Below, piece after piece: positions 1 through 59,836 of a DNA stretch of 64,000 nucleotides (its first letter is position 1; every line of letters starts with the position of its first letter). The position numbers were made by a program, and so were the translations under genes. Under the pieces are notes generated by a model. It ran no database searches and had not been told where the DNA came from. It worked only from the letters and a program-made list of their open reading frames with translations. Origin of the DNA: a virus; the IMG/VR virus record IMGVR_UViG_3300020185_004330, positions 17,141-81,140 of that record; one strand, written 5' to 3'.

Positions 1-2
1 CT

Positions 3-482
3 TTTTTAATAACAAAAATGGACAGATATGACCCGTCAAAAGGAACTAGAGCTTTCGCTTTTTTTGGAACTATAGCAAAACATTATTTGATGGGGGAAAA
101 AAAGATTTCTTACAAAAACATACAAAGCAATGTTAGTCTGGAGGGTTCTTCTGCTGAAATTAACTTAGAAGAAGGGAATGAAGATAGACAAATGGATTTA
201 GAGTCTGAAAAAGTAAATAATGTAGTTTTTAGAGAAGTTATAAAAAAATTAGAATTAGAACTATTGAATCCTAAAGTTTTGCCTAATGACAAAAAGGTTA
301 TGGAGGCTATTATATTTATATTCAACAGACATGAAGTGATTAATATATATAACAAAAACTTATTATACCACCTCATTAAAGAAAGAACAGATTTACAAGC
401 TAAAGAAATAACATATTCCTTAACAAGAATAAGAAGTATGTACAAAGAATTTAAAGAGATGTTTTTAAAGACCTTAAATTAA
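3..482 (+). CDS. Phage RNA polymerase sigma-factor-like protein (5'-truncated by window edge)
   Basis: Frame is open to the window start (FLITKMDRYDPSKGTRAFAFFGTIAKHYL), resembling the sigma-70 region 2 FDPxKG..F..YA motif; C-terminal helical/HTH-like segment. Confidence 0.55.
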   Translation, partial: FLITKMDRYDPSKGTRAFAFFGTIAKHYLMGEKKISYKNIQSNVSLEGSSAEINLEEGNEDRQMDLESEKVNNVVFREVIKKLELELLNPKVLPNDKKVMEAIIFIFNRHEVINIYNKNLLYHLIKERTDLQAKEITYSLTRIRSMYKEFKEMFLKTLN

Positions 483-17096: not shown

Positions 17097-17741
17097 ATGA
17101 AGGATAAAGTAAGAAAATTAAAGTTAAAAAAACTAATACAAGAATATAATTTTTTGCTAACTGATGAAAGCTACAAAAAAGAAGTTATTAGCGAAACAAA
17201 ATCAGATTTTCTTAAAGAAATACATGAAAAAAAAATAGAATTAGGACTAATAGAAAATGAGCCATTTCAAGAAGTAATACACGAAGAAAATTCTGATGTT
17301 AAGGGTGAAAATGTTGAAACAAAAGAAAGTGATGAAGCAAACTTAGAGGATGACTCAAAAGACCCTAAAGACATCAAAGACAAAGACTTATTAGAAAATA
17401 AAGAAAAGTCAAAAAAATCATCTAAGGTAAAAAAGTTATATAGAGAAATTGCAAAAAAAACACACCCAGACAAAGCAAAGTCAAACGAACATGTTGACTT
17501 GTATAACAGGGCCACATCGGCATATGAAGATAGTGATTTGATATCATTATACATTATTGCTTCAGAATTAGATATTAACGTAGAGCTGGATGAAGATGAT
17601 ATTCTTAATATAAATGAAACAATAAACCATAAAAGAAAACAGTTACATAACTTAGAAATGTCTTACCTTTGGCTATGGTATAATGCTAAAACAAAAGAAC
17701 AAAAAGAAAAGGTTGTAGCTTTGTTTATAAATAAAAACTAA
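17097..17741 (+). CDS. J-domain (DnaJ-like) co-chaperone
   Basis: VKKLYREIAKKTHPDK...LYNRATSAYE contains the HPD motif. Confidence 0.8.
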   Translation: MKDKVRKLKLKKLIQEYNFLLTDESYKKEVISETKSDFLKEIHEKKIELGLIENEPFQEVIHEENSDVKGENVETKESDEANLEDDSKDPKDIKDKDLLENKEKSKKSSKVKKLYREIAKKTHPDKAKSNEHVDLYNRATSAYEDSDLISLYIIASELDINVELDEDDILNINETINHKRKQLHNLEMSYLWLWYNAKTKEQKEKVVALFINKN

Positions 17742-17749
17742 AACACAAA

Positions 17750-18592
17750 ATGAAAGACCTAACAAAAATTTACGAACAATTTTGTAAAACAAAAGGAATA
17801 CCTTTTAGATTGGATGACAATGTAAAGAGTTATGATGATACCACATTATTTTGCCCAGCAGGAATGCAGCAATTTAAAGATAGATTCAAAAACCCAGACA
17901 ACAAAACTGTTGCCAATATACAATCTTGTATTAGACTTAATGACTTAGAAGAAATAGGAGACGGAACACATATGTTGCACTTTAAGATGATAGGGCTGTT
18001 TTCATTTGGTGAAATCACCATAAATCAAGCTGTAGATTTTTGGGTAGAATTTGTTAGTAATATTTTACAAATTAAAATAGATTATGTAACAGTACATCCT
18101 GACAAGTTTGATGAATGGAAATGGTTATATGAAATATATAAAATACCCGTTAAATTAGATGATGAATGCATATGGTCAGATGGCGAGATGGGTGGATATT
18201 GCACTGAGTTTTATCATAATGAAGTAGAAATAGGAAACATTGTCAATACAATGGATAAATATATTGATGTTGGATTTGGATATTCTAGACTTGACGCAAT
18301 TATAAATGGAAATAAAAATTTAAGCAAAAATGATATACTTAAAGATGCAATAATTAAAATAATTGATTCAGGATTCAAGCCTGGTCCACAGAAGCAAGGG
18401 TATGTTCTAAGAAAATTACTTAGACAACTATATGTCGGAGGAGGCTCTGTTAACCATCCTTTCTTTAAAAAAGAAATAGAAAGACAAGAAAAGGCTAAAG
18501 TTAGATATGACAAATTAAAAGAAAAGCACTCTGACAAACCTAAAGAATGGTGGTTTGATACTCATGGCATTAACTTGGATGAAATGGATTAA
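17750..18592 (+). CDS. alaS: Truncated alanyl-tRNA synthetase (catalytic core only)
   Basis: DDTTLFCPAGMQQFK, QSCIR.NDLEEIG.GTH..HFKMIGLFSFG, EIGNIV, IDVGFGYSRL (motif 3), QGYVLRKLLR; only 280 aa. Confidence 0.85.
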   Translation: MKDLTKIYEQFCKTKGIPFRLDDNVKSYDDTTLFCPAGMQQFKDRFKNPDNKTVANIQSCIRLNDLEEIGDGTHMLHFKMIGLFSFGEITINQAVDFWVEFVSNILQIKIDYVTVHPDKFDEWKWLYEIYKIPVKLDDECIWSDGEMGGYCTEFYHNEVEIGNIVNTMDKYIDVGFGYSRLDAIINGNKNLSKNDILKDAIIKIIDSGFKPGPQKQGYVLRKLLRQLYVGGGSVNHPFFKKEIERQEKAKVRYDKLKEKHSDKPKEWWFDTHGINLDEMD

Positions 18593-18636
18593 TAATCTAT
18601 CGTATTATTAAAAAAATAAATAAAATATAAAATAAA

Positions 18637-18667
18637 AGAGGGCTAGAAAACTAGCCCTCTCTCTTTT
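18637..18667. terminator. Intrinsic terminator between convergent genes
   Basis: AGAGGGCTAG-AAAA-CTAGCCCTCT 10-bp stem with A-run before and T-run after. Confidence 0.85.
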
Positions 18668-18715
18668 GGGTTTTGATGTTTAATTTACAATAAATTGTAA
18701 TTTATACAACTAAAC

Positions 18716-21472
18716 TTATTCACCATCAAAAACTTGCTCTGGTGATTTTTCGCGCAGTTCAACTAATTCTGTAGAAACTGCTGAGAATTCTATAACAGAA
18801 CCTTCAGCTCCATAATTAGCGGACTTTGCACTCAACCTTTCTTCAGATTCGATTGTTCCACCTTCGATTACTCCCATTCTTGCTTCAACAGCATGAGCTA
18901 TAACTCTAGCACCAAGATTAACCAGTTCTAAAGCTTCATTAAGAAATGTAAACTCTAGTCCAGGCGTTTTTCCAGCATCAATATAATCTTCACCTGCTTT
19001 CATCAATAAACCATTAACAAAAATTTGTTCTGTATCTTGTGTTATTGCTCTAGGGAAAAATAACGTACCTTCTTCTACACTAACATCTTTTCTCGTCATA
19101 AAGTTCGTAGCTTGAAACTTAAGTGCTTCGTTAGTAGCAACAATCGCCTCAGCAATAGAATCTACAGCAGACTCATCTGAATTAGACAGTAAATTAGCAA
19201 CAGCTTCATGTAAAGCCTTCTCTTCAGAGCTAGCTCTCTTAATTTCAGCATCTAAACCTATTTGTAATTCAGCATCAGCAGCCTTATAAGCTTCAGTCAT
19301 AGCAGCGTCATCAGCAGCTTGCTTAGCAACTTGTGCAGCTAAACCTTCAGTTAAGACTTTTTCAGCAGCTTCAGCTCTTGATTTCTCAGTAGCGATTGCA
19401 TCACCAGCAGCTTTTTCGTTTTGGTCAACGTCAGCTTGTAATGCAGATAAAGTTGTATTAACAGCAACAGCTAAATCACTATCAGCCTCTTGAAAAGCAT
19501 TAACGATTTCAGTTAATGAATCGAGAGCAGCTGGGTCCATGTTTGACAACATGTTGTCAACTCTAACACCTAAAGCAGATTCAGCAGCTTCAGCTCTTGA
19601 TTTCTCAGTAGCGATTGCATCACCAGCAGCTTTTTCGTTTTGGTCAACGTCAGCTTGTAAAGCAGCGATAGCAGCTTCTCTGTCAAGCTTTTCAGAAGCA
19701 TCAGCAGCTTTGTAAGCAGCGTCCATAGCAGCTTCATCAGCAGCTTGTTTAGCAACTTGTGCAGCTAAACCTTCAGTTAATACTTCATCAGCAGCTTCAT
19801 AAGCAACTTTTGCAGCAGCATCAGCAGCTTTATAAGCAGCATCCATAGCAGCATCAGCAGCTTCAGAAGCTTCTTTGTTAGCAGAAACATTTGATGTAAT
19901 CGCACCTTCAGCAGCTCTTGCAGTTACAGCTTCAGCAGAAATAGCAGCAGCATTTGCAGCTTCAGCAGCTCTTGCAGTTGCAGCTTCAGCAGAAATAGCA
20001 GCAGCATTTGCAGCTTCAGCAGCTTCAGCTCTTTCTTGTTCAGCAGCATTTGCAGCTTCAGCAGCAGCTTTATCAGCAGCAGCAGTAGCTATAATAGCAG
20101 CATCAGCAGCTTCATAAGCAACTTTTGCAGCAGCATCAGCAGCTTTATAAGCAGCATCCATAGCAGCAACATCGTCAGTTAAGACTTTTTCAGCAGCTCT
20201 TGCAGTTACAGCTTCAGCAGAAATAGCATCAGCATTTGCTTTTTCAGCAGCTTCAGCTCTTGCAGTTTCAGCAACTAAGTTCTCACTACCAGCAATATCA
20301 GCAGCAGCTCTTATAGCAGATTCAGCATCTAAGTTAGCCTGAACAGCATCATCACCAGCAGCTCTATCTATAAGCTCTTGAGCAAGTGCATCATTAGTAG
20401 CTTTATCAGCAGCTTCAGAAGCAGCTTGATTAGCGTCTACATCATTTTGAATAGCAGCTTCAGCAGCTCTTGCAGTTGCAGCTTCAGAAACATCAGCAGC
20501 TTCAGAAGCAGCATTATCAGCAGCTTGTTTAGAAGCTAGCGTAGATACAGCAGCATCGTTAGAAAGAACGTAACCAGCAAATGCAGTATCGTTCGCAGTA
20601 TCAACAGAGTTGATTAATGCAACGATTTCATGAAATTCGTCAGCATCAGCAGTTGAAGATTCTAATATAGCGTCAATTCTTGATTTCTGAGTTTCAATAG
20701 CAGTTTCAGCAGCAGCTTGATTAGCGTTTACATCATTTTGAATAACAGCATCAGCAGCAATTCTTGCAGCTTCCTCAAGAGATACAGAATTTTGAATAAC
20801 AGCTTCAGCAGCTAAAGCTCTAGCTTCTTCAGCAGAAATAGCAGCAGCATTTGCTTGTTCAGCAGCTTGAGCTCTATTGCTTTCAGCAATATCACCAGCT
20901 TCAGAAGCAGCTTTTTGAGTAGCAGCAGCAGTAATAATGTCAGCAATCTCTACATCATGAGCCGCATCAGCAGTTTGTCTGTTTGTAGCTTCTTGTTGAA
21001 TTGCAGCAGCATTTGCAGCTTCAGCAGCTTCAGCTCTAAGCTTTTCAGCAGCATCAGCAGCAGCATTTGCATCTTCAGCAGCAGTAGCTCTTGTAGTTTC
21101 AGCTAGCAAAGCAGCTTCAATAGCAGCCTTATTGGCGTCCATTTCAACTTGTTGAGCAGCGTCATCAGCAACTTGCTTAGATGATTGTGCATCTAATTCA
21201 GCTTTAAGCTGCTTATCGTCAGCTTGAGCAGCAGCTTTATTACTGTCTACATCATTTTGAATAGCTTCCCTTTCAGAAGCGCTAAACTTACTCTCTTGAG
21301 CTTGCTTATCATTGATACTTTGAATAGCATCATCTAATTGCGCGATGTCACCAGTTACTAAACCGACAGGGCTTAAAATCTCAGCGCCAGTTAAAATAAG
21401 GTCAGACTGTCTGTTTAAAACAATCCTAGTTCCACCTGTAGTAGAACCTGAAAATAATAAAAATAAATCCAT
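18716..21472 (-). CDS. Ala-rich coiled-coil fibre-like protein
   Basis: 918 aa; recurring AE..RA.AAE and A.KAAD units; TLKELADAL-like LDSLTEIVNAF module; C-terminal IFVNGLL..GEDY module. Confidence 0.7.
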   Translation of the reverse strand: MDLFLLFSGSTTGGTRIVLNRQSDLILTGAEILSPVGLVTGDIAQLDDAIQSINDKQAQESKFSASEREAIQNDVDSNKAAAQADDKQLKAELDAQSSKQVADDAAQQVEMDANKAAIEAALLAETTRATAAEDANAAADAAEKLRAEAAEAANAAAIQQEATNRQTADAAHDVEIADIITAAATQKAASEAGDIAESNRAQAAEQANAAAISAEEARALAAEAVIQNSVSLEEAARIAADAVIQNDVNANQAAAETAIETQKSRIDAILESSTADADEFHEIVALINSVDTANDTAFAGYVLSNDAAVSTLASKQAADNAASEAADVSEAATARAAEAAIQNDVDANQAASEAADKATNDALAQELIDRAAGDDAVQANLDAESAIRAAADIAGSENLVAETARAEAAEKANADAISAEAVTARAAEKVLTDDVAAMDAAYKAADAAAKVAYEAADAAIIATAAADKAAAEAANAAEQERAEAAEAANAAAISAEAATARAAEAANAAAISAEAVTARAAEGAITSNVSANKEASEAADAAMDAAYKAADAAAKVAYEAADEVLTEGLAAQVAKQAADEAAMDAAYKAADASEKLDREAAIAALQADVDQNEKAAGDAIATEKSRAEAAESALGVRVDNMLSNMDPAALDSLTEIVNAFQEADSDLAVAVNTTLSALQADVDQNEKAAGDAIATEKSRAEAAEKVLTEGLAAQVAKQAADDAAMTEAYKAADAELQIGLDAEIKRASSEEKALHEAVANLLSNSDESAVDSIAEAIVATNEALKFQATNFMTRKDVSVEEGTLFFPRAITQDTEQIFVNGLLMKAGEDYIDAGKTPGLEFTFLNEALELVNLGARVIAHAVEARMGVIEGGTIESEERLSAKSANYGAEGSVIEFSAVSTELVELREKSPEQVFDGE
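19361..19660. repeat. Perfect 81-bp direct repeat inside the Ala-rich gene (19361-19441 and 19580-19660)
   Basis: Both copies compared base by base and found identical. Confidence 0.9.
19786..20168. repeat. Perfect 68-bp direct repeat inside the Ala-rich gene (19786-19853 and 20101-20168)
   Basis: Both copies compared base by base and found identical. Confidence 0.9.
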
Positions 21473-36730: not shown

Positions 36731-37786
36731 GTGGAAAACAATAAGCAAATAGTAATATCTATACTAGAAAAAGTATTTGGTTCACCTAAAAAAAGTGGTG
36801 ATATAAAAGAGTATGAATTTAATTGTAAAAGTAGGGTCTGTCGAAACGATGAAGACAAATTCAATCTAGCTTATAATTCACAAAATCATATTTTTCATTG
36901 TTGGAAATGTAAATATAAAGGACATGTTCACAAACTAGTTTCAGACTACGGAAATAAAGATGACTTAAATAGAGTGTCTTTAGTTCTTCCAAAGAAAAAG
37001 CCTTTTAAAAAAGAAAAAAAATCAGAAGAATATAGTGACATGATTACCTGCTCTCTACCAGAGGGGTTCAAGTATATGTCCAAAAAAAGTGATTCAAAAT
37101 ATTATAAGTCAGCCATGAGATATATGATGTCTGAAAGAGGTTGGAGTTTAGAAAAAATTAAGAAACATAACTTAGGATATACTGAAAATAAAGGAAATAG
37201 AAAATATAGGATTATATTTCCTTCTTATAACGAGTATGGTCAAGTTAATTATTATGTAGGAAGAACTTATTATGACGTTATTAAACCTAACTATATGGGA
37301 CCACCCAAGGAAGAGGTTGCTAGAACTGAGATTATATTTAATGTGAAAAACATAAACTTCGATACACCTGTTTTTTTAGTTGAAGGAGTGTTTGATATGG
37401 CTTGCATATATAATTCTATTCCGATGCTTGGTAAAGAGCCAGCAAATGTAATTATAAAAAAATTAGTAGAACATGACACTAGAGTTGTTTTGTGTCTAGA
37501 TGAAGATGCTCTATATGATAGTATAGAAATATACAACAAACTTAGTTCTTATGGATTAGATGTTTATTTTGTAGAAATACCAGATGATATAGATGAGTTT
37601 CACAAGAACAAAGGAAAACAGGCTACAATTGAACTTTTAAAAACTTGTAGAAAGTTGGATTTTCAATATATGTTTAAAAATTTTGCTCTTAAAGAAAATA
37701 AGAAAAAAAGAGACTTTGTTGATGAAAAAGGGTTGAAAAGTGAGTGGGAAAAAATGAAATCAGAAATATTAAAAGACCAAAAATGA
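36731..37786 (+). CDS. dnaG: DNA primase (Zn-binding + TOPRIM)
   Basis: FHCWKCKYKG, RIIFPSY, FLVEGVFD, LCLDED; GTG start. Confidence 0.85.
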   Translation: MENNKQIVISILEKVFGSPKKSGDIKEYEFNCKSRVCRNDEDKFNLAYNSQNHIFHCWKCKYKGHVHKLVSDYGNKDDLNRVSLVLPKKKPFKKEKKSEEYSDMITCSLPEGFKYMSKKSDSKYYKSAMRYMMSERGWSLEKIKKHNLGYTENKGNRKYRIIFPSYNEYGQVNYYVGRTYYDVIKPNYMGPPKEEVARTEIIFNVKNINFDTPVFLVEGVFDMACIYNSIPMLGKEPANVIIKKLVEHDTRVVLCLDEDALYDSIEIYNKLSSYGLDVYFVEIPDDIDEFHKNKGKQATIELLKTCRKLDFQYMFKNFALKENKKKRDFVDEKGLKSEWEKMKSEILKDQK

Positions 37787-40700
37787 GCAAATCTAAAGTT
37801 AACAATTCAATAGCACACATATCTGATATTCACATTAGATACGGAAGTAGACACAAAGAGTATAGAGATGTGTTTCAGAGGACTATAGATGATTTGTCTG
37901 TTCAAAAACCTAAAAGGATTGCTATAACTGGAGATTTGTTTCACATCAAAATAAATCTATCACCTAATGCATTGGAGATTGCAGGCTGGTTTATGAAGGA
38001 ATTGTCTAAAATAGCACCTGTAGATTTGATTTTAGGAAATCATGATTTAAACCTACAGTCACTAGAACAGGGTAATTCAATTGAGCCAATAATCAAACTA
38101 ATTAGTGATGGATATATTGTTGAAAAAGGAGCAAAAAAACTTCCAACACATAAAGGAAGTGGACATGGGATATTTTTCTTTTTACATAGCGGATTTTATA
38201 ACGTAAATGACGACATAGTTTATGGTGTATATTCTTGCTTGGACAATGAAATACTAACATTAAAAACAAAGGATAAGGACAAAACTTATATTGCAATGTA
38301 CCATGGCCCAGTATATGGCTCTAGAGGCAATAATGGGTATGAGTTACATGATAGTGAATATATGATGAAACTTAGCACTTTTAATAATTTTGACATTGTC
38401 ATGCTAGGCGACATACATGAGCATCAATCATTTTCCTTAAAAACATCAGCAACAGAAAATATAGCATACCCTGGAAGTTTAATACAACAGGATTATGGAG
38501 AGACTATTGACAAGGGTTACATTGTTTGGGATTTAAAAAAGAAAAGTTTTTCTAGAAAATTTATACCTAATGATTATGGCTTCTCAAGCCTCCATATTTC
38601 TAGAGGTGAAATATTTGAAGATAGAATTGAAGACTTAAAACTTTCTCATAACCCCAAAAAGACAAAGGTATCAGTTACGTGGGAGGCATTTCAAGAAGAT
38701 TACTCTGTAGAAAAAGAGAAACAAATAGAAAAGTTAATAAAAAACAAATATGGATGTGAAGTAATAAACGTAGATTGCAAACATATAAGTAAGGAAGATG
38801 AAATAAGTAATATTGATATTGATGAAGAAAAGGATTACACAAAGATAGAAGAGTTTGAAACTTTACTAAAAGAATTTGTCGATAATAGTGAGTATGATAA
38901 TGAAGATGAGGTTTTAGAGCTTTCTAGGAAAATAGATAAAGAATTGAACTATTCTTCTGAAAAAGGTAAAAAATGGTTTTTAAATAGTTTAGAAGTTTGG
39001 AACCTATTTGGATTTCCAGAAGATAAAACAACTTTTAACTTTAATGAACTTTCTGGTGTAACTGGTATATTTGGAAAAAACTTTAGCGGTAAAACCAATT
39101 TAATTAGAGCCCTTGTTTGGATTGCTTACAGAAAAATTTTAGGAGGAGGAGAGGCGTATAGATTAACTAATATGTATACAGAAAGCGATAAGGCTGGTGG
39201 TCGAATTTATTTGACTATCGATTCTCAGCAATACTATATAGAAAGGACGGTTAGAGTTAGAACAAAAAAAGATGGAACTCCTGACGTTTCTTATGGCGTT
39301 GAATATAAAATGTTAAAAGAAGATTCTGAAGGAAAAAAAACTTGGACTTCTATAGATTCAGATAAGGCAGCAACTGAAAAGACTGAAAGAAATAATATTA
39401 TAGTAGAGTCAATAGGAACTTTTGATGACTTCACTAAAATAGTATTGCAGGCACAAGGTGGAGAGGGTAATTTTTTAGACATGAGCCAACAGCCAAAAAA
39501 TGACTTAATAAACAAATATCTTGGCCTGGAAGTTTTTAGAGATAGATATGAATATGCTAAAAGAATATTTAATGATATAAAGTCAAAGCAGAAATTTTTG
39601 GGGAGCTCAAAAGAGCACAAAGAGTCTATAAAAAAAGAAGATGAATCAATAGTAGAAAACAACAAATATTTAAAGAAATATAAAACTGAAAGGGAAGATA
39701 CGGACAAGTTAGTTGAGGCTCAAGAGCAAAAAATTAGAGATTTGACCAAAACCTTAATCAAAGTAGAGGTGACAAAATATTCTAATATAGAATCTGCTCA
39801 GAAATCAATTGAAAAAACAAAAGAGTCTTTAGACAAAAAAGTAGAGTTAGAATCAGAATTTATTAAGTGGGTTTCTTCTAATTTTAAAAAAGAGCTACCA
39901 AAAGATTCTGCTTTAGGAATTGTTAAAGTTGAAACTAGCCTAAAATCAGAAAGGAAATTATTTGAGTCAGAAAAAAATGAATACGTTTCACTTAACTCTT
40001 GGATTGAAAGCAATCCATTACAAAAAGAAATTGACATAGAACCTGTCAAACAAAAAGTTACAGAGACAGAGTCTGCTTTGTTGAGGTTGAAAAATAAGTT
40101 AGAGATATCTAAAGGAAAAAAGTGTCCAACATGTGGAAATGTAGAGCAAAAAGCAAATTTAGAACTAGAAAAGCAATGTTCTAAAGATATAGAAAGAGGA
40201 GAGAAAGCTTTGTTTGAAAGAAATGGTGAAATTAAAAGAGCTAACCAAATTAGTAATCATAACATATTTTTTGAAAAGCAAAAAAATAAAATGGGGTCTT
40301 TTAAAAATTCTCTACAAGAACGTAAGATTAAGATAGAAGACTTAAAGAGAGGTTTAGAGCTATCTCAAAAAGTAGAAGAAATTAATAAGCATAATAATTT
40401 AGTAGAATCTAAGAGTAAATCTTTAGAAAGCATAAAAGTAGATATTCTAGAATTAAAAAAAACAATTGAAGATATAAAAAAAGACATTTCTATATTAAAG
40501 TCTAACAAAGATTCAATTGAAAAGAATAATGAAATAAATGTTCAAATAAAACTAAATGAAGATGAGAAAAAATCTTTAAAACTTATAATAAATCAGCTAA
40601 ACGAAAAAATAAGTTCCATTAAGTCTGATATAAAAGTGTCCAAAAGTAATAAGGATAATCTAGAAGGTAAAATTGAAACTATTAAAAAAGCAGAATCTTC

Positions 40701-41283
40701 ATATAGTAAATATGCCATTTACTTACAAGCTGTACATAGAGATGGAATACCTGCTAGAATAATAAGGCAAAAATTGCCTATAATAAATTATAAAATCAAT
40801 TCAATATTAAAAAATTTGGTAGAATTTAAGGTGGAGATGATTATAAAAAACAATGGAGACATAAAAGAGTTCTTTTATTTTAACTCACTAGAAAAAGATG
40901 CACTACCAATGACAATGGCTTCAGGTGCACAAAAGTTTATAGGAAGTGTAGCAATAAGAGACTCTCTACATTTTGTTAGTTCACTAACTAAACCTTCGCT
41001 CTGTATAATAGATGAGGGATTTGGAGCTTTAGATAATGATTTGACCATAGCCATGCAGTCTGTTTTTTATTACTTAAAAGATAAATACAAAAACACATGG
41101 ATTATAACTCACAAAAATGAGATTAAAGATTTTGTTGATAACATAATTCAAGTTTCTAAAAGTAAGTCAACATTAACTGATGAACAAATAAAAGAGAATC
41201 CTAGAGCTGGAATATCTGTGTTTGATTTAAATAATAGAAATCAAAATAAAGGAAAAGAAAACAGTAAGGAGGTTTCTTTTTAG
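37783..41283 (+). CDS. Fused Mre11/SbcD nuclease - Rad50/SbcC ATPase (T4 gp47-gp46-like)
   Basis: HISDIH, TGDLFH, GNHD, GDIH, YPGS phosphoesterase motifs; Walker A GKNFSGKT; CPTC hook; ASGAQK signature; IIDEGFGALD; IITH. Start is ATG 37783 (ATGA overlap with primase). Confidence 0.9.
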   Translation: MSKSKVNNSIAHISDIHIRYGSRHKEYRDVFQRTIDDLSVQKPKRIAITGDLFHIKINLSPNALEIAGWFMKELSKIAPVDLILGNHDLNLQSLEQGNSIEPIIKLISDGYIVEKGAKKLPTHKGSGHGIFFFLHSGFYNVNDDIVYGVYSCLDNEILTLKTKDKDKTYIAMYHGPVYGSRGNNGYELHDSEYMMKLSTFNNFDIVMLGDIHEHQSFSLKTSATENIAYPGSLIQQDYGETIDKGYIVWDLKKKSFSRKFIPNDYGFSSLHISRGEIFEDRIEDLKLSHNPKKTKVSVTWEAFQEDYSVEKEKQIEKLIKNKYGCEVINVDCKHISKEDEISNIDIDEEKDYTKIEEFETLLKEFVDNSEYDNEDEVLELSRKIDKELNYSSEKGKKWFLNSLEVWNLFGFPEDKTTFNFNELSGVTGIFGKNFSGKTNLIRALVWIAYRKILGGGEAYRLTNMYTESDKAGGRIYLTIDSQQYYIERTVRVRTKKDGTPDVSYGVEYKMLKEDSEGKKTWTSIDSDKAATEKTERNNIIVESIGTFDDFTKIVLQAQGGEGNFLDMSQQPKNDLINKYLGLEVFRDRYEYAKRIFNDIKSKQKFLGSSKEHKESIKKEDESIVENNKYLKKYKTEREDTDKLVEAQEQKIRDLTKTLIKVEVTKYSNIESAQKSIEKTKESLDKKVELESEFIKWVSSNFKKELPKDSALGIVKVETSLKSERKLFESEKNEYVSLNSWIESNPLQKEIDIEPVKQKVTETESALLRLKNKLEISKGKKCPTCGNVEQKANLELEKQCSKDIERGEKALFERNGEIKRANQISNHNIFFEKQKNKMGSFKNSLQERKIKIEDLKRGLELSQKVEEINKHNNLVESKSKSLESIKVDILELKKTIEDIKKDISILKSNKDSIEKNNEINVQIKLNEDEKKSLKLIINQLNEKISSIKSDIKVSKSNKDNLEGKIETIKKAESSYSKYAIYLQAVHRDGIPARIIRQKLPIINYKINSILKNLVEFKVEMIIKNNGDIKEFFYFNSLEKDALPMTMASGAQKFIGSVAIRDSLHFVSSLTKPSLCIIDEGFGALDNDLTIAMQSVFYYLKDKYKNTWIITHKNEIKDFVDNIIQVSKSKSTLTDEQIKENPRAGISVFDLNNRNQNKGKENSKEVSF

Positions 41284-52816: not shown

Positions 52817-53140
52817 TTGACAATTACAAAACACATATTACTAGAAGACAGAAAGTCAATCAACGGACTAGAAGTGTCTCATAATCTAGGGTCAATGAAT
52901 TGGCATGAAGCAAAAATTGCTTGTAAAAAATTAGGACTAGGATGGAGATTGCCAACAAAAGACGAATTAAATATGCTTTATGAAAATAAGGAAGAAATTG
53001 GCGGTTTTGCTAATGTCAACTATTGGAGTTCTACGGTGTTCGTTAACTCCAGTGCGTGGGCTCAGGGTTTCAACAATGGTAGCCAGTTCTTCGACTTTAA
53101 GTACTTCAACCTCTATGTTCGCGCTGTTCGGGCTTCTTAA
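52817..53140 (+). CDS. DUF1566/CLec-fold variable protein, copy 2
   Basis: Same motifs as copy 1; variable region ~53009-53140. Confidence 0.85.
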   Translation: MTITKHILLEDRKSINGLEVSHNLGSMNWHEAKIACKKLGLGWRLPTKDELNMLYENKEEIGGFANVNYWSSTVFVNSSAWAQGFNNGSQFFDFKYFNLYVRAVRAS

Positions 53141-53160
53141 CAATTTAACTATTTAACCAT

Positions 53161-53484
53161 TTGACAATTAAAAAACACATATTACTAGAATCAAGAAAAG
53201 CAATTAATGGATTAGAAGTCTCTAATAATTTAGGTCGTATGACTTGGTATGAAGCAATAAGTGCTTGCAAGAATTTGGGAACAGGATGGAGATTGCCAAC
53301 AAAAGACGAATTGAATATGCTTTATGAAAACAAGGAAGAAATTGGCGGTTTTGCTAATAACTTCTATTGGAGTTCTACGGAGAACGATAACTACGATGCG
53401 TGGAGACAGTATTTCGGCGATGGTAACCAGTACAACTTCAATAAGCTCGACACACTCTCTGTTCGGGCTGTTCGGGCTTCTTAA
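53161..53484 (+). CDS. DUF1566/CLec-fold variable protein, copy 3
   Basis: Same motifs; variable region ~53353-53484. Confidence 0.85.
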   Translation: MTIKKHILLESRKAINGLEVSNNLGRMTWYEAISACKNLGTGWRLPTKDELNMLYENKEEIGGFANNFYWSSTENDNYDAWRQYFGDGNQYNFNKLDTLSVRAVRAS

Positions 53485-53504
53485 CAATTTAACTATTTAA
53501 CCAT

Positions 53505-53828
53505 TTGACAATTACAAAACACATATTACTAGAAGGTAAAAAGTCAATCAATGGATTAGAAGTCTCTAATAATTTAGGATATATGACTTGGCATGAAGCA
53601 ATAAGTGCTTGCAAAAAATTAGGAACAGGATGGAGATTGCCAACGAAAGACGAATTGAATATGCTTTATGAAAACAAGGAAGAAATTGGCGGTTTTGCTT
53701 ATTTCTTCTATTGGAGTTCTACGGAGACTGGTAACGGCAGTGCGTGGGTTCAGTATTTCTCCAATGGTGTCCAGGGCTACTACAATAAGCTCAACTGCTA
53801 CTGTGTTCGCGCTGTTCGGGCTTCTTAA
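53505..53828 (+). CDS. DUF1566/CLec-fold variable protein, copy 4
   Basis: Same motifs; variable region ~53697-53828. Confidence 0.85.
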   Translation: MTITKHILLEGKKSINGLEVSNNLGYMTWHEAISACKKLGTGWRLPTKDELNMLYENKEEIGGFAYFFYWSSTETGNGSAWVQYFSNGVQGYYNKLNCYCVRAVRAS

Positions 53829-53848
53829 CAATTTAACTATTTAACCAT

Positions 53849-54175
53849 TTGACAATTACAAAACACATACTACTAGAAGGCAAAAAGTCAGTCAACGGAC
53901 TAGAAGTTTCTGATAATTTGGGTATAATGAATTGGTATGACGCAAAAATTTACTGCAAAAAATTAGGAGCAGAATGGAGATTGCCAACAAAAGACGAATT
54001 GAATATGCTTTATGAAAACAAGGAAGAAATTGGCGGTTTTTCTAATAAGTTCTTCTATTGGAGTTCTACGGAGTTCGATTTCTCCAGTGCGTGGACTCAG
54101 AATTTCCTCCTTGGTTACCAGGGCACCAACAATAAGGACAACGTCACCTATGTTCGCGCTGTTCGGGCTTCTTAA
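53849..54175 (+). CDS. DUF1566/CLec-fold variable protein, copy 5
   Basis: Same motifs; variable region ~54041-54175 with one extra codon. Confidence 0.85.
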   Translation: MTITKHILLEGKKSVNGLEVSDNLGIMNWYDAKIYCKKLGAEWRLPTKDELNMLYENKEEIGGFSNKFFYWSSTEFDFSSAWTQNFLLGYQGTNNKDNVTYVRAVRAS

Positions 54176-54290: not shown

Positions 54291-54367
54291 GGACGGGTAG
54301 CTCAGCTGGATAGAGCCACGCACTTCTAATGCGTAGGTCGAAGGTTCGAATCCTTCTCCGTTCACCA
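54291..54367 (+). tRNA. tRNA-Arg (anticodon UCU)
   Basis: Full cloverleaf; anticodon arm ACGCA-CTTCTAA-TGCGT; GGTTCGAATCC T-arm; encoded CCA. Confidence 0.95.
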
Positions 54368-54373
54368 TTTATA

Positions 54374-54682
54374 GGGCCTCTAGCTCAGATGGTTAGAGCA
54401 ACTGACTCATTAGTAATAGTGCCGTTAGCAAGAAATTGTTAAATGTGAATGGGGTGAATTCAAGGAAATCTTAACACGTAACGGTGATGACAACCATGAG
54501 CCAAGTCTGTGGTACACCACAGAAAGGTGCAGAGACTACTGGAGAAGTTTAGCCTTCTTAATAACCAGGTTTAGCGCCCCAAACCCTAACGTAAAGACGA
54601 GGGTTATGAGATAGTCCACAGAGTTATGAAAATAACACAAATGTGAATCAGTAGGTCACAGGTTCGAATCCTGTGGGGCCCA
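54374..54682 (+). tRNA. tRNA(CAU), probably Ile2 (lysidine type), split by an intron: exons 54374-54410 and 54646-54682
   Basis: Joined exons give a cloverleaf with ACTGA-CTCATAA-TCAGT; G1-C72 and no GGG/CCC anticodon stem, so not an initiator tRNA. Confidence 0.85.
54411..54645 (+). ncRNA. ORF-less group I intron (IC3-like, 235 nt)
   Basis: 5' exon ends in U and intron ends in G; P AATTCAAGGAAA, Q AACCATGAGC, R GTGCAGAGACTA, S GAGATAGTCC; P3 GGGGTG/CGCCCC. Confidence 0.85.
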
Positions 54683-54710: not shown

Positions 54711-55592
54711 ATGGAAAAGAAAAAGTGTGTTAATTGTGATTTGGAATTTGAATCTAAATCTAAAACAAAGAAGTTTTGTAGTGTAAAATGTTCTTGTTCT
54801 TACAACAATAAAAGAAAAGAAAACACTAGCAAAAAAAGTGAAGTAAAAGAAAAGCTTAGAAAAAAAGCCCTAGAACAATACGACAAAAAGTATGGAGCCT
54901 TAAAAAAGTTTGATGTTAATTGTAAATGTTGTGGAGCTATAGTTGTTGTAGAAGAAAGGGAAAAACAGTTTCCCAAAAAAGATAAATACTTTTGCTCAAA
55001 GTCATGTAGCAATACTAGGCGTCACACATCTGAAACTAAAAGTAAGATAAGCAATTCTTTACATGGTACTGGCAACAAGGATGTATTTATAACTTGTAAA
55101 CAGTGTAATGTTAAGTTTGAGCGCAAATGGACAAAGAGAAATCAGAAATTTTGTTCCCGAAGTTGTGCCTCTAAATTTGTTAGTAATACAGAAGAAAGAA
55201 AAAGTTTACAAAGTTTAATAGGTAGAAGGTCTGCTGCTAAGCAATCTATAGAAAGAAGGAGTAAAAATGAAATTCATTTTGCCAACCTTTGTAAGGAAGA
55301 GTTTAGAAAAGTAATTACAAATGAGCCTATTTTTAACGGCTGGGATGCTGATGTTATAGTTCAAGATTTAAATATAGCTGTACTTTGGAATGGTAAATGG
55401 CATTATGAGAAAATTACTGAATCACACTCAGTTTCTCAAGTTCAAAATAGAGATAAAATTAAAATAAAAGAAATAAAAAAAGCAGGATATATTCCATATG
55501 TTATAAAAGATATGGGAAGAGCTAATAAAGAAAAAGTTGAAAAAGAATTTAAAAAATTTATAAAATTTGTAAATCAAATTAAATTGCGATAA
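54711..55592 (+). CDS. Free-standing putative homing endonuclease (Zn-ribbon repeats + Vsr/PD-(D/E)XK-like C-terminus)
   Basis: Three CxxC...FCSxxC repeats; NEPIFNGWDADVIV..LNIAVLWNGKWHY. Confidence 0.65.
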   Translation: MEKKKCVNCDLEFESKSKTKKFCSVKCSCSYNNKRKENTSKKSEVKEKLRKKALEQYDKKYGALKKFDVNCKCCGAIVVVEEREKQFPKKDKYFCSKSCSNTRRHTSETKSKISNSLHGTGNKDVFITCKQCNVKFERKWTKRNQKFCSRSCASKFVSNTEERKSLQSLIGRRSAAKQSIERRSKNEIHFANLCKEEFRKVITNEPIFNGWDADVIVQDLNIAVLWNGKWHYEKITESHSVSQVQNRDKIKIKEIKKAGYIPYVIKDMGRANKEKVEKEFKKFIKFVNQIKLR

Positions 55593-59741: not shown

Positions 59742-59762
59742 AATATTATTTTTAATTAAAAG

Positions 59763-59836
59763 TGGAGGATATCGGAGTCGAACCGATGACCTCCTGCGTG
59801 CAAGGCAGGCGCTCTAGCCAGCTGAGCTAATCCCCC
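59763..59836 (-). tRNA. tRNA-Ala (anticodon UGC)
   Basis: GGGGGATTAGCTCAGCTGG...CTTGCAC...GGTTCGACTCC...TCCTCCA; G3:U70 present; CCA not encoded. Confidence 0.95.

Follow-up and report, generated by a model that had tools for sequence, protein, structure and literature searches.

How small can an alanyl-tRNA synthetase (AlaRS) be? The question is raised by a 280-aa open reading frame (ORF) on a marine viral DNA stretch of 64,000 nucleotides (positions 17,141 to 81,140 of the IMG/VR record IMGVR_UViG_3300020185_004330; hereafter the window), which an earlier note, made from the letters alone, had described as a minimal AlaRS lacking both its editing and its G3:U70-reading regions. AlaRS has a textbook four-domain layout that is conserved throughout life, and it is also the model of an "operational RNA code", whereby the G3:U70 pair of the acceptor stem specifies identity. 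To our knowledge, just one natural enzyme, the 461-residue protein of Tupanvirus, has been shown to function with nothing but an aminoacylation domain. The reading that we favor, by a modest measure of confidence, is that the product of the viral gene is a free-standing, editing-free, condensed or minimal AlaRS acting on G3:U70 acceptors. What the analysis demonstrates is the homology, the fold, the pattern of conservation, purifying selection and the lack of other AlaRS parts in the records searched; adenylate formation, tRNA binding and G3:U70 dependence of the 280-aa protein are properties that we infer.

The predicted protein matches the Pfam family PF01411 (tRNA-synt_2c) with 77.7 bits (E 9.4e-22; curated cut-off 30.3), so that the hidden Markov model (HMM) alignment called for by the earlier note bears out the assignment of this ORF (Table 1). 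A phmmer comparison with solved aminoacylation fragments of AlaRS gave E 2.6e-14, and the score with the full-length alaS equivalog TIGR00344 (NCBIfam) is 79.1 bits, far under the cut-off of 457.05. A profile of the family to which the protein belongs finds solved AlaRS with E 8.8e-41; its E-values are 1e-41 to 1e-35 for bacterial, 1e-30 for eukaryotic and 1e-16 for archaeal AlaRS. We regard the ORF, on these sequence relationships, as a genuine AlaRS homologue of the bacterial type. A PHROGs search with it yielded a weak match alone, to the unannotated family phrog_28604.

The closest public record is LR745206.1, a sequence of 634,780 bp labeled "uncultured phage", whose homologue is 55.6% identical over 98% of the protein and shows further PF01411 matches at profile positions 282-342 and 350-410. 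The virus record around the window itself comprises 87,981 bp and is ~27% complete by CheckV. A giant-virus origin was considered and rejected: we treat the carrier of the gene as a large or huge tailed phage because no capsid match to nucleocytoplasmic large DNA viruses (NCLDV) was found, the virus record contains a weak Gp23-type match, the window contains a phage-type helicase, and the nearest record is a huge phage.

For comparison with canonical enzymes, residues 1-461 of Escherichia coli AlaRS (alaS translated from NC_000913.3) were aligned by MAFFT with a diverse set of family members and with the N-termini of canonical AlaRS. When a 34-member alignment of the family was compared by hhalign with a 14-member alignment of canonical AlaRS, the two matched with a probability of 100% (E 5.8e-60) over 291 aligned columns, covering canonical positions 3-397. 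The AlphaFold2 model of the 280-aa protein, computed from the family alignment, has a mean predicted local distance difference test (pLDDT) score of 93.4, with nothing below 50, and a predicted template modeling (pTM) score of 0.85. Its top matches in Foldseek are bacterial AlaRS fragments, with query-normalised template modeling (TM) scores of 0.77-0.78. VIA-align placed 279 of the 280 residues on E. coli 3hxu 1..412 (Z 24.8, root mean square deviation 4.4), and the model on Archaeoglobus fulgidus 3wqy 59..460 with Z 20.5; both ranges run beyond the Asp residue that reads G3 (D400 in E. coli, D450 in A. fulgidus).

The next-best fold is that of the glycyl-tRNA synthetase (GlyRS) alpha subunit. 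Bacterial GlyRS alpha (GlyQ, ~300 aa; PDB 7EIV, 5F5W, 1J5W) resembles the phage protein in size and in its class IId core, and one can therefore ask whether the latter is likewise the catalytic subunit of a two-part enzyme, in the way that GlyRS-alpha needs GlyRS-beta, with a separate phage or host protein holding the tRNA. However, the GlyRS-alpha match in VIA-align (Z ~16, as against 24.8 for AlaRS) is confined to residues 1-205 instead of spanning the chain, it is the AlaRS ATL, not the GlyQ tail, with which the C-terminal module aligns, and no match to PF02091 (bacterial GlyRS alpha) was found at E up to 0.1. Moreover, the ATL of bacterial GlyRS resides on the separate beta subunit, whereas in the phage protein its remnant is fused to the core. 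We consider a two-part enzyme quite unlikely; a candidate partner is discussed below together with the neighboring genes.

The condensed AlaRS that we favor is an internally shortened aminoacylation domain and not the simple truncation at about E. coli residue 330 that the earlier note had implied. Compared with the E. coli enzyme, the segments corresponding roughly to residues 158-167, 187-207, 218-233, 258-287 and 327-368 and all residues past ~412 are missing; some of the deleted segments are likewise missing from certain canonical AlaRS in the MAFFT alignment. The protein stops ~10 residues past the D400-type motif, at a point corresponding to E. coli residue 412, and the editing (tRNA_SAD) and C-Ala domains are absent from it, in agreement with the earlier note. 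It consists of a catalytic core (approximately residues 1-186) with an acidic isoelectric point (pI) of 4.67, and of a reduced helical tRNA-recognition/ATL remnant (approximately residues 187-280; ~94 aa) with a basic pI of 9.55. In the domain terms of a recent preprint, it comprises the catalytic domain and about half of the "ATL" acceptor-stem latch (10.1101/2023.05.29.542759).

The class II motifs are intact, as the earlier note had seen, and so is the alanine/ATP site. Residue counts were taken over 144 full-length family members. In motif 1, F34 and G38 are invariant in the 34-member alignment and occur in 142 and 143 members of the larger set, respectively, as does M39 in 142; in motif 2, R62, D65, F78 and M80 are found in each of the 144 members. 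The pocket residues W142, N163, V165, D173 and G175 are the equivalents of E. coli W170, N212, V214, D235 and G237, and R180 represents the motif 3 Arg. R62, W142, E153, E160, N163, V165, D173, G175 and R180 are each kept in 143-144 of the 144 members. In the E. coli enzyme, R69, W170, N212, V214, D235, G237 and the motif 3 Arg are residues of the alanine/ATP pocket.

This conservation bears on the notion that the protein is a non-catalytic binder of tRNA-Ala, a decoy or a regulator that would, for instance, shield the tRNA from a tRNA-targeting defence or interfere with the host AlaRS. That the gene is found in phages and has kept its acceptor-stem-reading motifs would suit such a role, but there would be no reason for an invariant ATP/alanine pocket across members that are 30-95% identical if catalysis had been lost, and the ratio of nonsynonymous to synonymous substitution rates (dN/dS) is ~0.1 over the whole gene. 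We therefore regard a purely binding function as very improbable.

Heavy deletion within a condensed AlaRS makes the fate of the elements that read the acceptor stem the critical issue. In canonical AlaRS, the regions of the GYVLRK helix and of the DTHG loop contact the G3:U70 pair. The first of these is represented by PGPQKQGYVLRKLLR at residues 211-225, after which 55 residues follow to the end of the protein, the distance that the earlier note had estimated. GYVLRK is conserved in the family. At the position of N303, the Asn that contacts U70 in E. coli, the phage protein carries Pro213, so the replacement of this Asn was correctly recognized. Across the 144 members the position is bimodal, with Pro in 67, Asn in 56, Ser in 8 and Ala in 7. 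On a FastTree phylogeny of the family, at least 8 switches between the Asn and Pro states were counted (vs. ~41 with shuffled labels), and both states have therefore been tolerated repeatedly.

The second element, the D400 region, had been thought absent. However, a near-invariant WWxDTHG motif lies inside the last 15 residues of the 280-aa protein, and D270 of its WWFDTHG aligns with E. coli D400 by MAFFT, by hhalign, which sets the family consensus eWWxDThGId on the canonical FxLyDTyGfPie, and by structure. With the MAFFT and hhalign alignments and the structural range in agreement, D270 is the predicted equivalent of the G3-contacting D400. The residues flanking it are widely shared (W267 in 139, W268 in 134, T271 in 137 and G273 in 141 of the 144 members). 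Both tRNA-reading elements, the GYVLRK helix and the DTHG loop, thus appear to have been selectively retained through heavy deletion. The suggestion that the enzyme might be "tRNA-promiscuous or repurposed" had presupposed that both G3:U70 readers are lost; the loss of the N303 Asn stands, but the premise as a whole is not supported, the D400 motif being retained and conserved (Asp in 123 and Glu in 10 members; D/E in 133 of 144). Repurposing is now the less likely reading.

A Pro at the N303 position does not preclude G3:U70 recognition in a related enzyme. The Tupanvirus mini-AlaRS (TuAlaRS, 461 aa; Antika et al., 2023) binds the acceptor stem alone, is specific for G3:U70 and can charge a microhelix (PMC10036535). 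Its residues at the N303 and D400 positions are Pro and Thr (Thr416), respectively, and yet it reads G3:U70 (PMC10036535). The phage protein shares with TuAlaRS the conserved motifs 1-3 and this Pro. The two differ in that TuAlaRS has a full-size tRNA-recognition domain (~460 aa in total) and is related to the enzyme of its eukaryotic host, whereas the phage protein is bacterial-type, 181 residues shorter, shows four to five internal deletions and has Asp where TuAlaRS has Thr416; in its 280 residues, the place of a complete tRNA-recognition domain is taken by the helical module of ~94 residues.

Other reduced AlaRS differ in other ways. The best structural matches, the N-terminal fragments of E. 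coli AlaRS (N441, N461, PDB 3HXU; N368/N385 are adenylate-only), have the same active-site residues. N441-N461 are engineered C-terminal truncations of 441-461 residues, whereas the phage protein is natural, has 280 residues, had internal segments removed and still reaches the D400 motif. The "small-AlaRS" of CPR (Candidate Phyla Radiation), DPANN and Asgard lineages consist of catalytic, ATL and editing domains, without C-Ala and the cradle-loop barrel (10.1101/2023.05.29.542759). They resemble the phage family as naturally reduced AlaRS without C-Ala, but they possess an editing domain and a full ATL and serve as the sole AlaRS of the cell, whereas the phage family is devoid of an editing domain and has approximately half of the ATL. 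Our literature search found no paper describing or testing the 280-aa AlaRS family; in a paper on Mom, AlaRS is present merely as a reagent (PMC13219725). The family is already cataloged under generic names, and its closest characterised relative is TuAlaRS.

A word-indexed search returned 971 relatives with lengths of 154-490 aa; the top 120 of these all measure 245-309 aa, with identities of 55% or more. Among 1.84 billion cluster representatives that were searched exhaustively, 47 reached E <1e-30; full-length members among these representatives measure 265-330 aa and align over the whole query down to ~31% identity. Canonical AlaRS of 750-900 aa first appear at E ~1e-20 in that search and cover residues 3-200 alone. 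Purifying selection on the gene is strong: dN/dS is 0.084-0.106 relative to 92-95% identical relatives, and for more distant relatives synonymous sites (pS) are saturated while the proportion of nonsynonymous differences (pN) is 0.09-0.23. Relaxed selection, which the earlier note had named as a possible objection, is not seen.

The same note had also raised the prospect of a split AlaRS, of which the 280-aa protein would be one half, while a gene at another place in the genome would specify the recognition, editing and C-Ala parts. The incompleteness of the window's own virus record leaves room for such an arrangement; however, that record contains no second PF01411 piece and no tRNA_SAD (PF07973), and the protein already spans canonical positions 1-412. 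LR745206.1 and five IMG/VR genomes of relatives (437-608 kb, CheckV 97-100% complete) each have one PF01411 frame of 286-338 aa, and neither tRNA_SAD nor DHHA1 (PF02272) was found in the 5 of those 6 records that were searched, whereas 14 of 14 control genomes were positive. Because there is one short PF01411 frame and no editing or C-Ala piece, the AlaRS of the relatives is not a split enzyme; this explanation is effectively refuted for them, and we consider it extremely improbable for the window.

Members of the family are abundant, with hundreds of them in huge phages from marine and other metagenomes, and they also occur in cultured bacteria. When one genome per prokaryotic species was scanned, cultured Rhizobiaceae (Rhizobium leguminosarum, R. 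sophorae, R. tropici, Neorhizobium sp. EC2-8 and Hoeflea) proved to have full-length members with 50-54% identity, and one more was present in a metagenome-assembled genome of Flavobacterium. RefSeq labels the rhizobial proteins "alanine--tRNA ligase-related protein" (e.g., WP_250810988.1 and WP_038544834.1). Their genes are flanked by ordinary chromosomal genes for metabolism, transport and the outer membrane that differ between genera. A prophage origin of the rhizobial copies was rejected: their flanks are free of phage genes and not common to the genera. The rhizobial gene is best described as a chromosomal accessory paralogue in cells that should already own a full AlaS. Its occurrence in cultivable Rhizobiaceae opens the family to tractable genetics and biochemistry.

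Candidate substrates of a condensed AlaRS are encoded by the phages themselves. The window specifies a tRNA-Ala(UGC), located 41 kb from the AlaRS gene, with G1-C72, G2-C71, G3:U70, A73 and a fully paired acceptor stem (7/7). The 73 related IMG/VR loci that we inspected collapse to 41 at 90% identity; tRNA genes lie within 10 kb of the AlaRS gene in 24 of these 41, and tRNA-Ala genes in 12. In several huge phages the AlaRS gene sits inside a tRNA array: LR745206 has 13 tRNAs nearby, with tRNA-Gly and tRNA-Ala just downstream, and in another locus (L048) the gene is flanked by tRNA-Ala(UGC) and tRNA-Ala(GGC). G3:U70 together with A73 is present in 25 of the 28 distinct tRNA-Ala genes that are linked, and the three exceptions are doubtful ARAGORN calls.

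Transfer-messenger RNA (tmRNA) is the other natural substrate of AlaRS and is alanylated through G3:U70. In four phage loci, a tmRNA gene confirmed with Rfam is located at a distance of 0.3-6 kb from the family member (Table 1); three are permuted (RF04321, 64-70 bits) and one is of the standard type (RF00023, 120 bits). In two of these loci (L020 and L022), the permuted tmRNA gene is found ~300 bp downstream of the AlaRS gene. No tmRNA was found in the window with Rfam. We consider tmRNA a second candidate substrate of the condensed AlaRS.

A working model can be proposed on this basis. The intact pocket of the condensed AlaRS would form alanyl-adenylate (Ala-AMP); the GYVLRK helix and the DTHG loop would then dock the acceptor stem, and alanine would be passed to G3:U70 acceptor stems, those of phage and host tRNA-Ala and possibly of phage tmRNA. 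Binding of the tRNA would occur only through the basic ATL remnant of ~94 residues, just as TuAlaRS binds the acceptor stem without C-Ala. During infection, the charging of tRNA-Ala could be maintained independently of the host AlaRS. As the enzyme would have no proofreading activity, mischarging with Ser or Gly would be left to trans-editing factors of the host or would be tolerated.

Several observations weigh against this model, and size is the main counter-argument. Deletion work on the E. coli enzyme, by Jasin, Regan and Schimmel in 1983 and in later papers, reportedly found that fragments of fewer than ~461 residues make the adenylate and do not charge tRNA. The phage protein holds less than half of the canonical recognition domain, and even E. 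coli N461 binds tRNA poorly, with a dissociation constant (Kd) of >32 uM (PMC10036535). Furthermore, plain HMMER (family profile vs. solved chains) left the register of the C-terminal motif ambiguous: its register on 9jdn differs, and on the Aquifex aeolicus enzyme the D400 register is a sub-threshold segment. For the placement of this motif we therefore draw on hhalign and the structural ranges. The link to tRNA genes also has its limits. In the window's own clade there is no tRNA within 10 kb of the AlaRS gene. Raw counts (tRNA-Ala 19 of 99 tRNAs within 2 kb of the gene vs. 14 of 192 farther out) and a pooled Fisher test (odds ratio 2.3, P = 0.044) point to a proximity of tRNA-Ala; we rejected a specific linkage when within-locus label shuffling over the 41 non-redundant loci gave P = 0.14 at 1 kb and P = 0.80 at 2.5 kb, and we keep in its place the weaker statement that the AlaRS gene is often found in tRNA arrays. 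Finally, accessory paralogues amid metabolic genes, as in the rhizobia, would also fit a non-translational role.

Such a role could be that of a repurposed alanine ligase or transferase, which would activate alanine and hand it to an acceptor other than tRNA, be it a small molecule or a carrier protein, or yield side products of the diadenosine tetraphosphate (Ap4A) type, or else would use ready-made Ala-tRNA as the donor. The precedent for the latter is AcmF, an AlaRS-like, Ala-tRNA-dependent transferase of ascamycin biosynthesis that has lost activation residues (N219Q, D232E; PMC12945691). AcmF demonstrates that truncated AlaRS-like enzymes exist in non-translational roles, and it resembles the phage protein in consisting of aminoacylation and tRNA-recognition parts only; the free-standing rhizobial paralogues amid transport and metabolic genes, the recognition domain of less than half the canonical size and the dispensability of the Asn at the N303 position within the family would all be compatible with a similar fate. 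Yet AcmF belongs to a biosynthetic cluster and lacks the activation residues, whereas the phage family keeps N163 and D173 (each in 143 of 144 members) and has no conserved cluster, nor is there a conserved biosynthetic partner gene in any clade examined. Both acceptor-stem-reading motifs and the basic helical module have survived heavy deletion, and many phage copies lie inside tRNA arrays. Taken together, we judge a ligase or transferase function to be unlikely, though less so than the other alternatives to a charging enzyme.

Should the 280-aa protein charge tRNA, every AlaRS with demonstrated charging activity would exceed it by far in size. We can go one step further and propose, with a confidence that falls somewhat short of even, that the family represents the smallest free-standing natural aminoacyl-tRNA synthetase, an enzyme of 280 residues that, with just a catalytic core and a ~94-residue ATL remnant, alanylates G3:U70 acceptors (tRNA-Ala and phage tmRNA) specifically, provides huge phages with host-independent alanine charging, and represents, in present-day organisms, the "catalytic + ATL" core proposed as ancestral. 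Such a core has been argued to be ancestral to AlaRS and bacterial GlyRS (bioRxiv preprint 10.1101/2023.05.29.542759), and it would become directly testable if the proposal is true. The family would then show, as an experiment of nature, how little protein suffices to read the G3:U70 code, and a compact, proofreading-free charging enzyme would join the tRNAs and tmRNAs with which huge phages are equipped. If tRNA is not charged, we would be dealing with a new family of AlaRS-derived ligases.

Table 1. Positions of the features discussed; coordinates are those of the window unless a locus is named.
Feature	Position	Strand	Basis or remark
Condensed AlaRS gene, 280 aa (P0001)	17750..18592	+	ATG-to-stop ORF; PF01411 match; AlphaFold2 model; dN/dS
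Motif 1 region TLFCPAGMQQFK (residues 32-43)	17843..17878	+	aligned to E. coli LLFTNAGMNQFK
Motif 2 (R62 ... F86), R62 = E. coli R69	17933..18007	+	MAFFT and hhalign alignment
Alanine pocket and motif 3	18173..18289	+	mapped on E. coli gene-derived sequence
KPGPQKQGYVLRKLLR helix (residues 210-225), equivalent of E. coli MPSN303ENRGYVLRRIIR	18377..18424	+	phmmer, MAFFT, hhalign
EWWFDTHGI (residues 266-274), predicted equivalent of E. coli FRLYD400TYGFP; D270 = D400	18545..18571	+	MAFFT, hhalign, structural range to E. coli 412
J-domain-like ORF with HPD motif, 214 aa, ends 8 nt before AlaRS start	17097..17741	+	DnaJ Pfam 24.3 bits, under 27.8 cut-off
Bidirectional terminator-like hairpin, 10-13 bp stem, between AlaRS gene and convergent Ala-rich gene	18634..18663	.	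3 such sites in region vs. 0.6 expected from shuffles
Convergent Ala-rich ORF, 918 aa	18716-21472	-	29.1% Ala
tRNA-Ala(UGC), candidate cognate substrate	59762..59836	-	ARAGORN; Rfam tRNA 68.8 bits
tRNA-Arg(UCU)	54291-54367
tmRNA genes	L020 11138-11316; L022 11144-11318; L077 3525-3752; L078 12997-13345		Rfam
Rhizobial member, Neorhizobium sp. EC2-8 CP147996.1	L108 4902-5843		further loci L102-L107
Group I catalytic intron	54402-54638	+	RF00028, 80.8 bits
Four tandem small ORFs	52895-54175	+	starts 52895, 53239, 53583, 53927
Phosphoesterase-ATPase fusion ORF	37783-41283	+
Two tRNAs with anticodon CUA	L077 8152-8438		ARAGORN
Interrupted ribonucleotide reductase gene	L004 3485-9983

In the window's clade, the AlaRS gene is the last one in a plus-strand block of structural-looking genes. 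The J-domain-like ORF directly upstream (Table 1) is found in the same arrangement, with a gap of 1-6 nt, in the 92-95% identical relatives (loci L097-L099), and the partner measures 211-219 aa across the clade. It is the one candidate in this clade for the second part of a GlyRS-like enzyme, as the 1-8 nt gap suggests coupled expression and a metatranscriptome contig spans the junction of the two genes. This partner is, however, clade-specific: it is not beside the distant family members examined and is syntenic in the window's own clade alone, the neighbors of distant members being unrelated (ribonucleotide reductase (RNR) and adenylate kinase, RecA, tRNAs, or metabolic genes), and an HPD-bearing J domain is indicative of Hsp70 and not of RNA. 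No partner gene common to the clades examined was found, and the idea of a conserved one was dropped.

The bridging contig is among marine metatranscriptome contigs from two studies that match positions 17523-17957 and 18113-18806 with 0-1 differences. They lend weak support to transcription of the AlaRS gene, as metatranscriptome libraries can contain DNA.

On its other side, the AlaRS gene faces, across the hairpin, a convergent ORF whose 267 Ala codons (228 of them GCT) set it apart from the other 49 window ORFs counted, which average 4.2% Ala. No Pfam or PHROG family match was found for this 918-aa ORF; it looks like a repetitive, fiber-like structural protein. That it adjoins the AlaRS gene in the clade suggests an alanine-demand rationale, by correlation only.

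Some further features of these phages deserve mention. In the window, the group I intron lies 35 nt downstream of tRNA-Arg(UCU) and upstream of an ORF at 54711-55592. The four tandem ORFs of 81-82 aa, spaced at exactly 344 bp, look like a tandemly duplicated small gene, and the 1166-aa single-ORF fusion joins a calcineurin-like phosphoesterase (Mre11/SbcD-type) to an AAA_23 (Rad50/SbcC-type) ATPase.

Among the relatives, a 393-kb phage has the RNR large subunit gene upstream of its mini-AlaRS split into several ORFs and bears insertions of the intein and homing-endonuclease (GIY-YIG, DUF723) kind. In a Logan contig (SRR6837555; locus of P0074), a 246-aa protein with matches to class II synthetase cores (tRNA-synt_2b, weakly 2d) is encoded ~230 bp upstream of the mini-AlaRS, and a Thg1-family gene is close by; such phages may harbor further miniaturised synthetase-like genes. 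The two CUA tRNAs near the family member on a 332-kb phage contig, which ARAGORN labels "Pyl", may be amber suppressors, as known for recoded huge phages.

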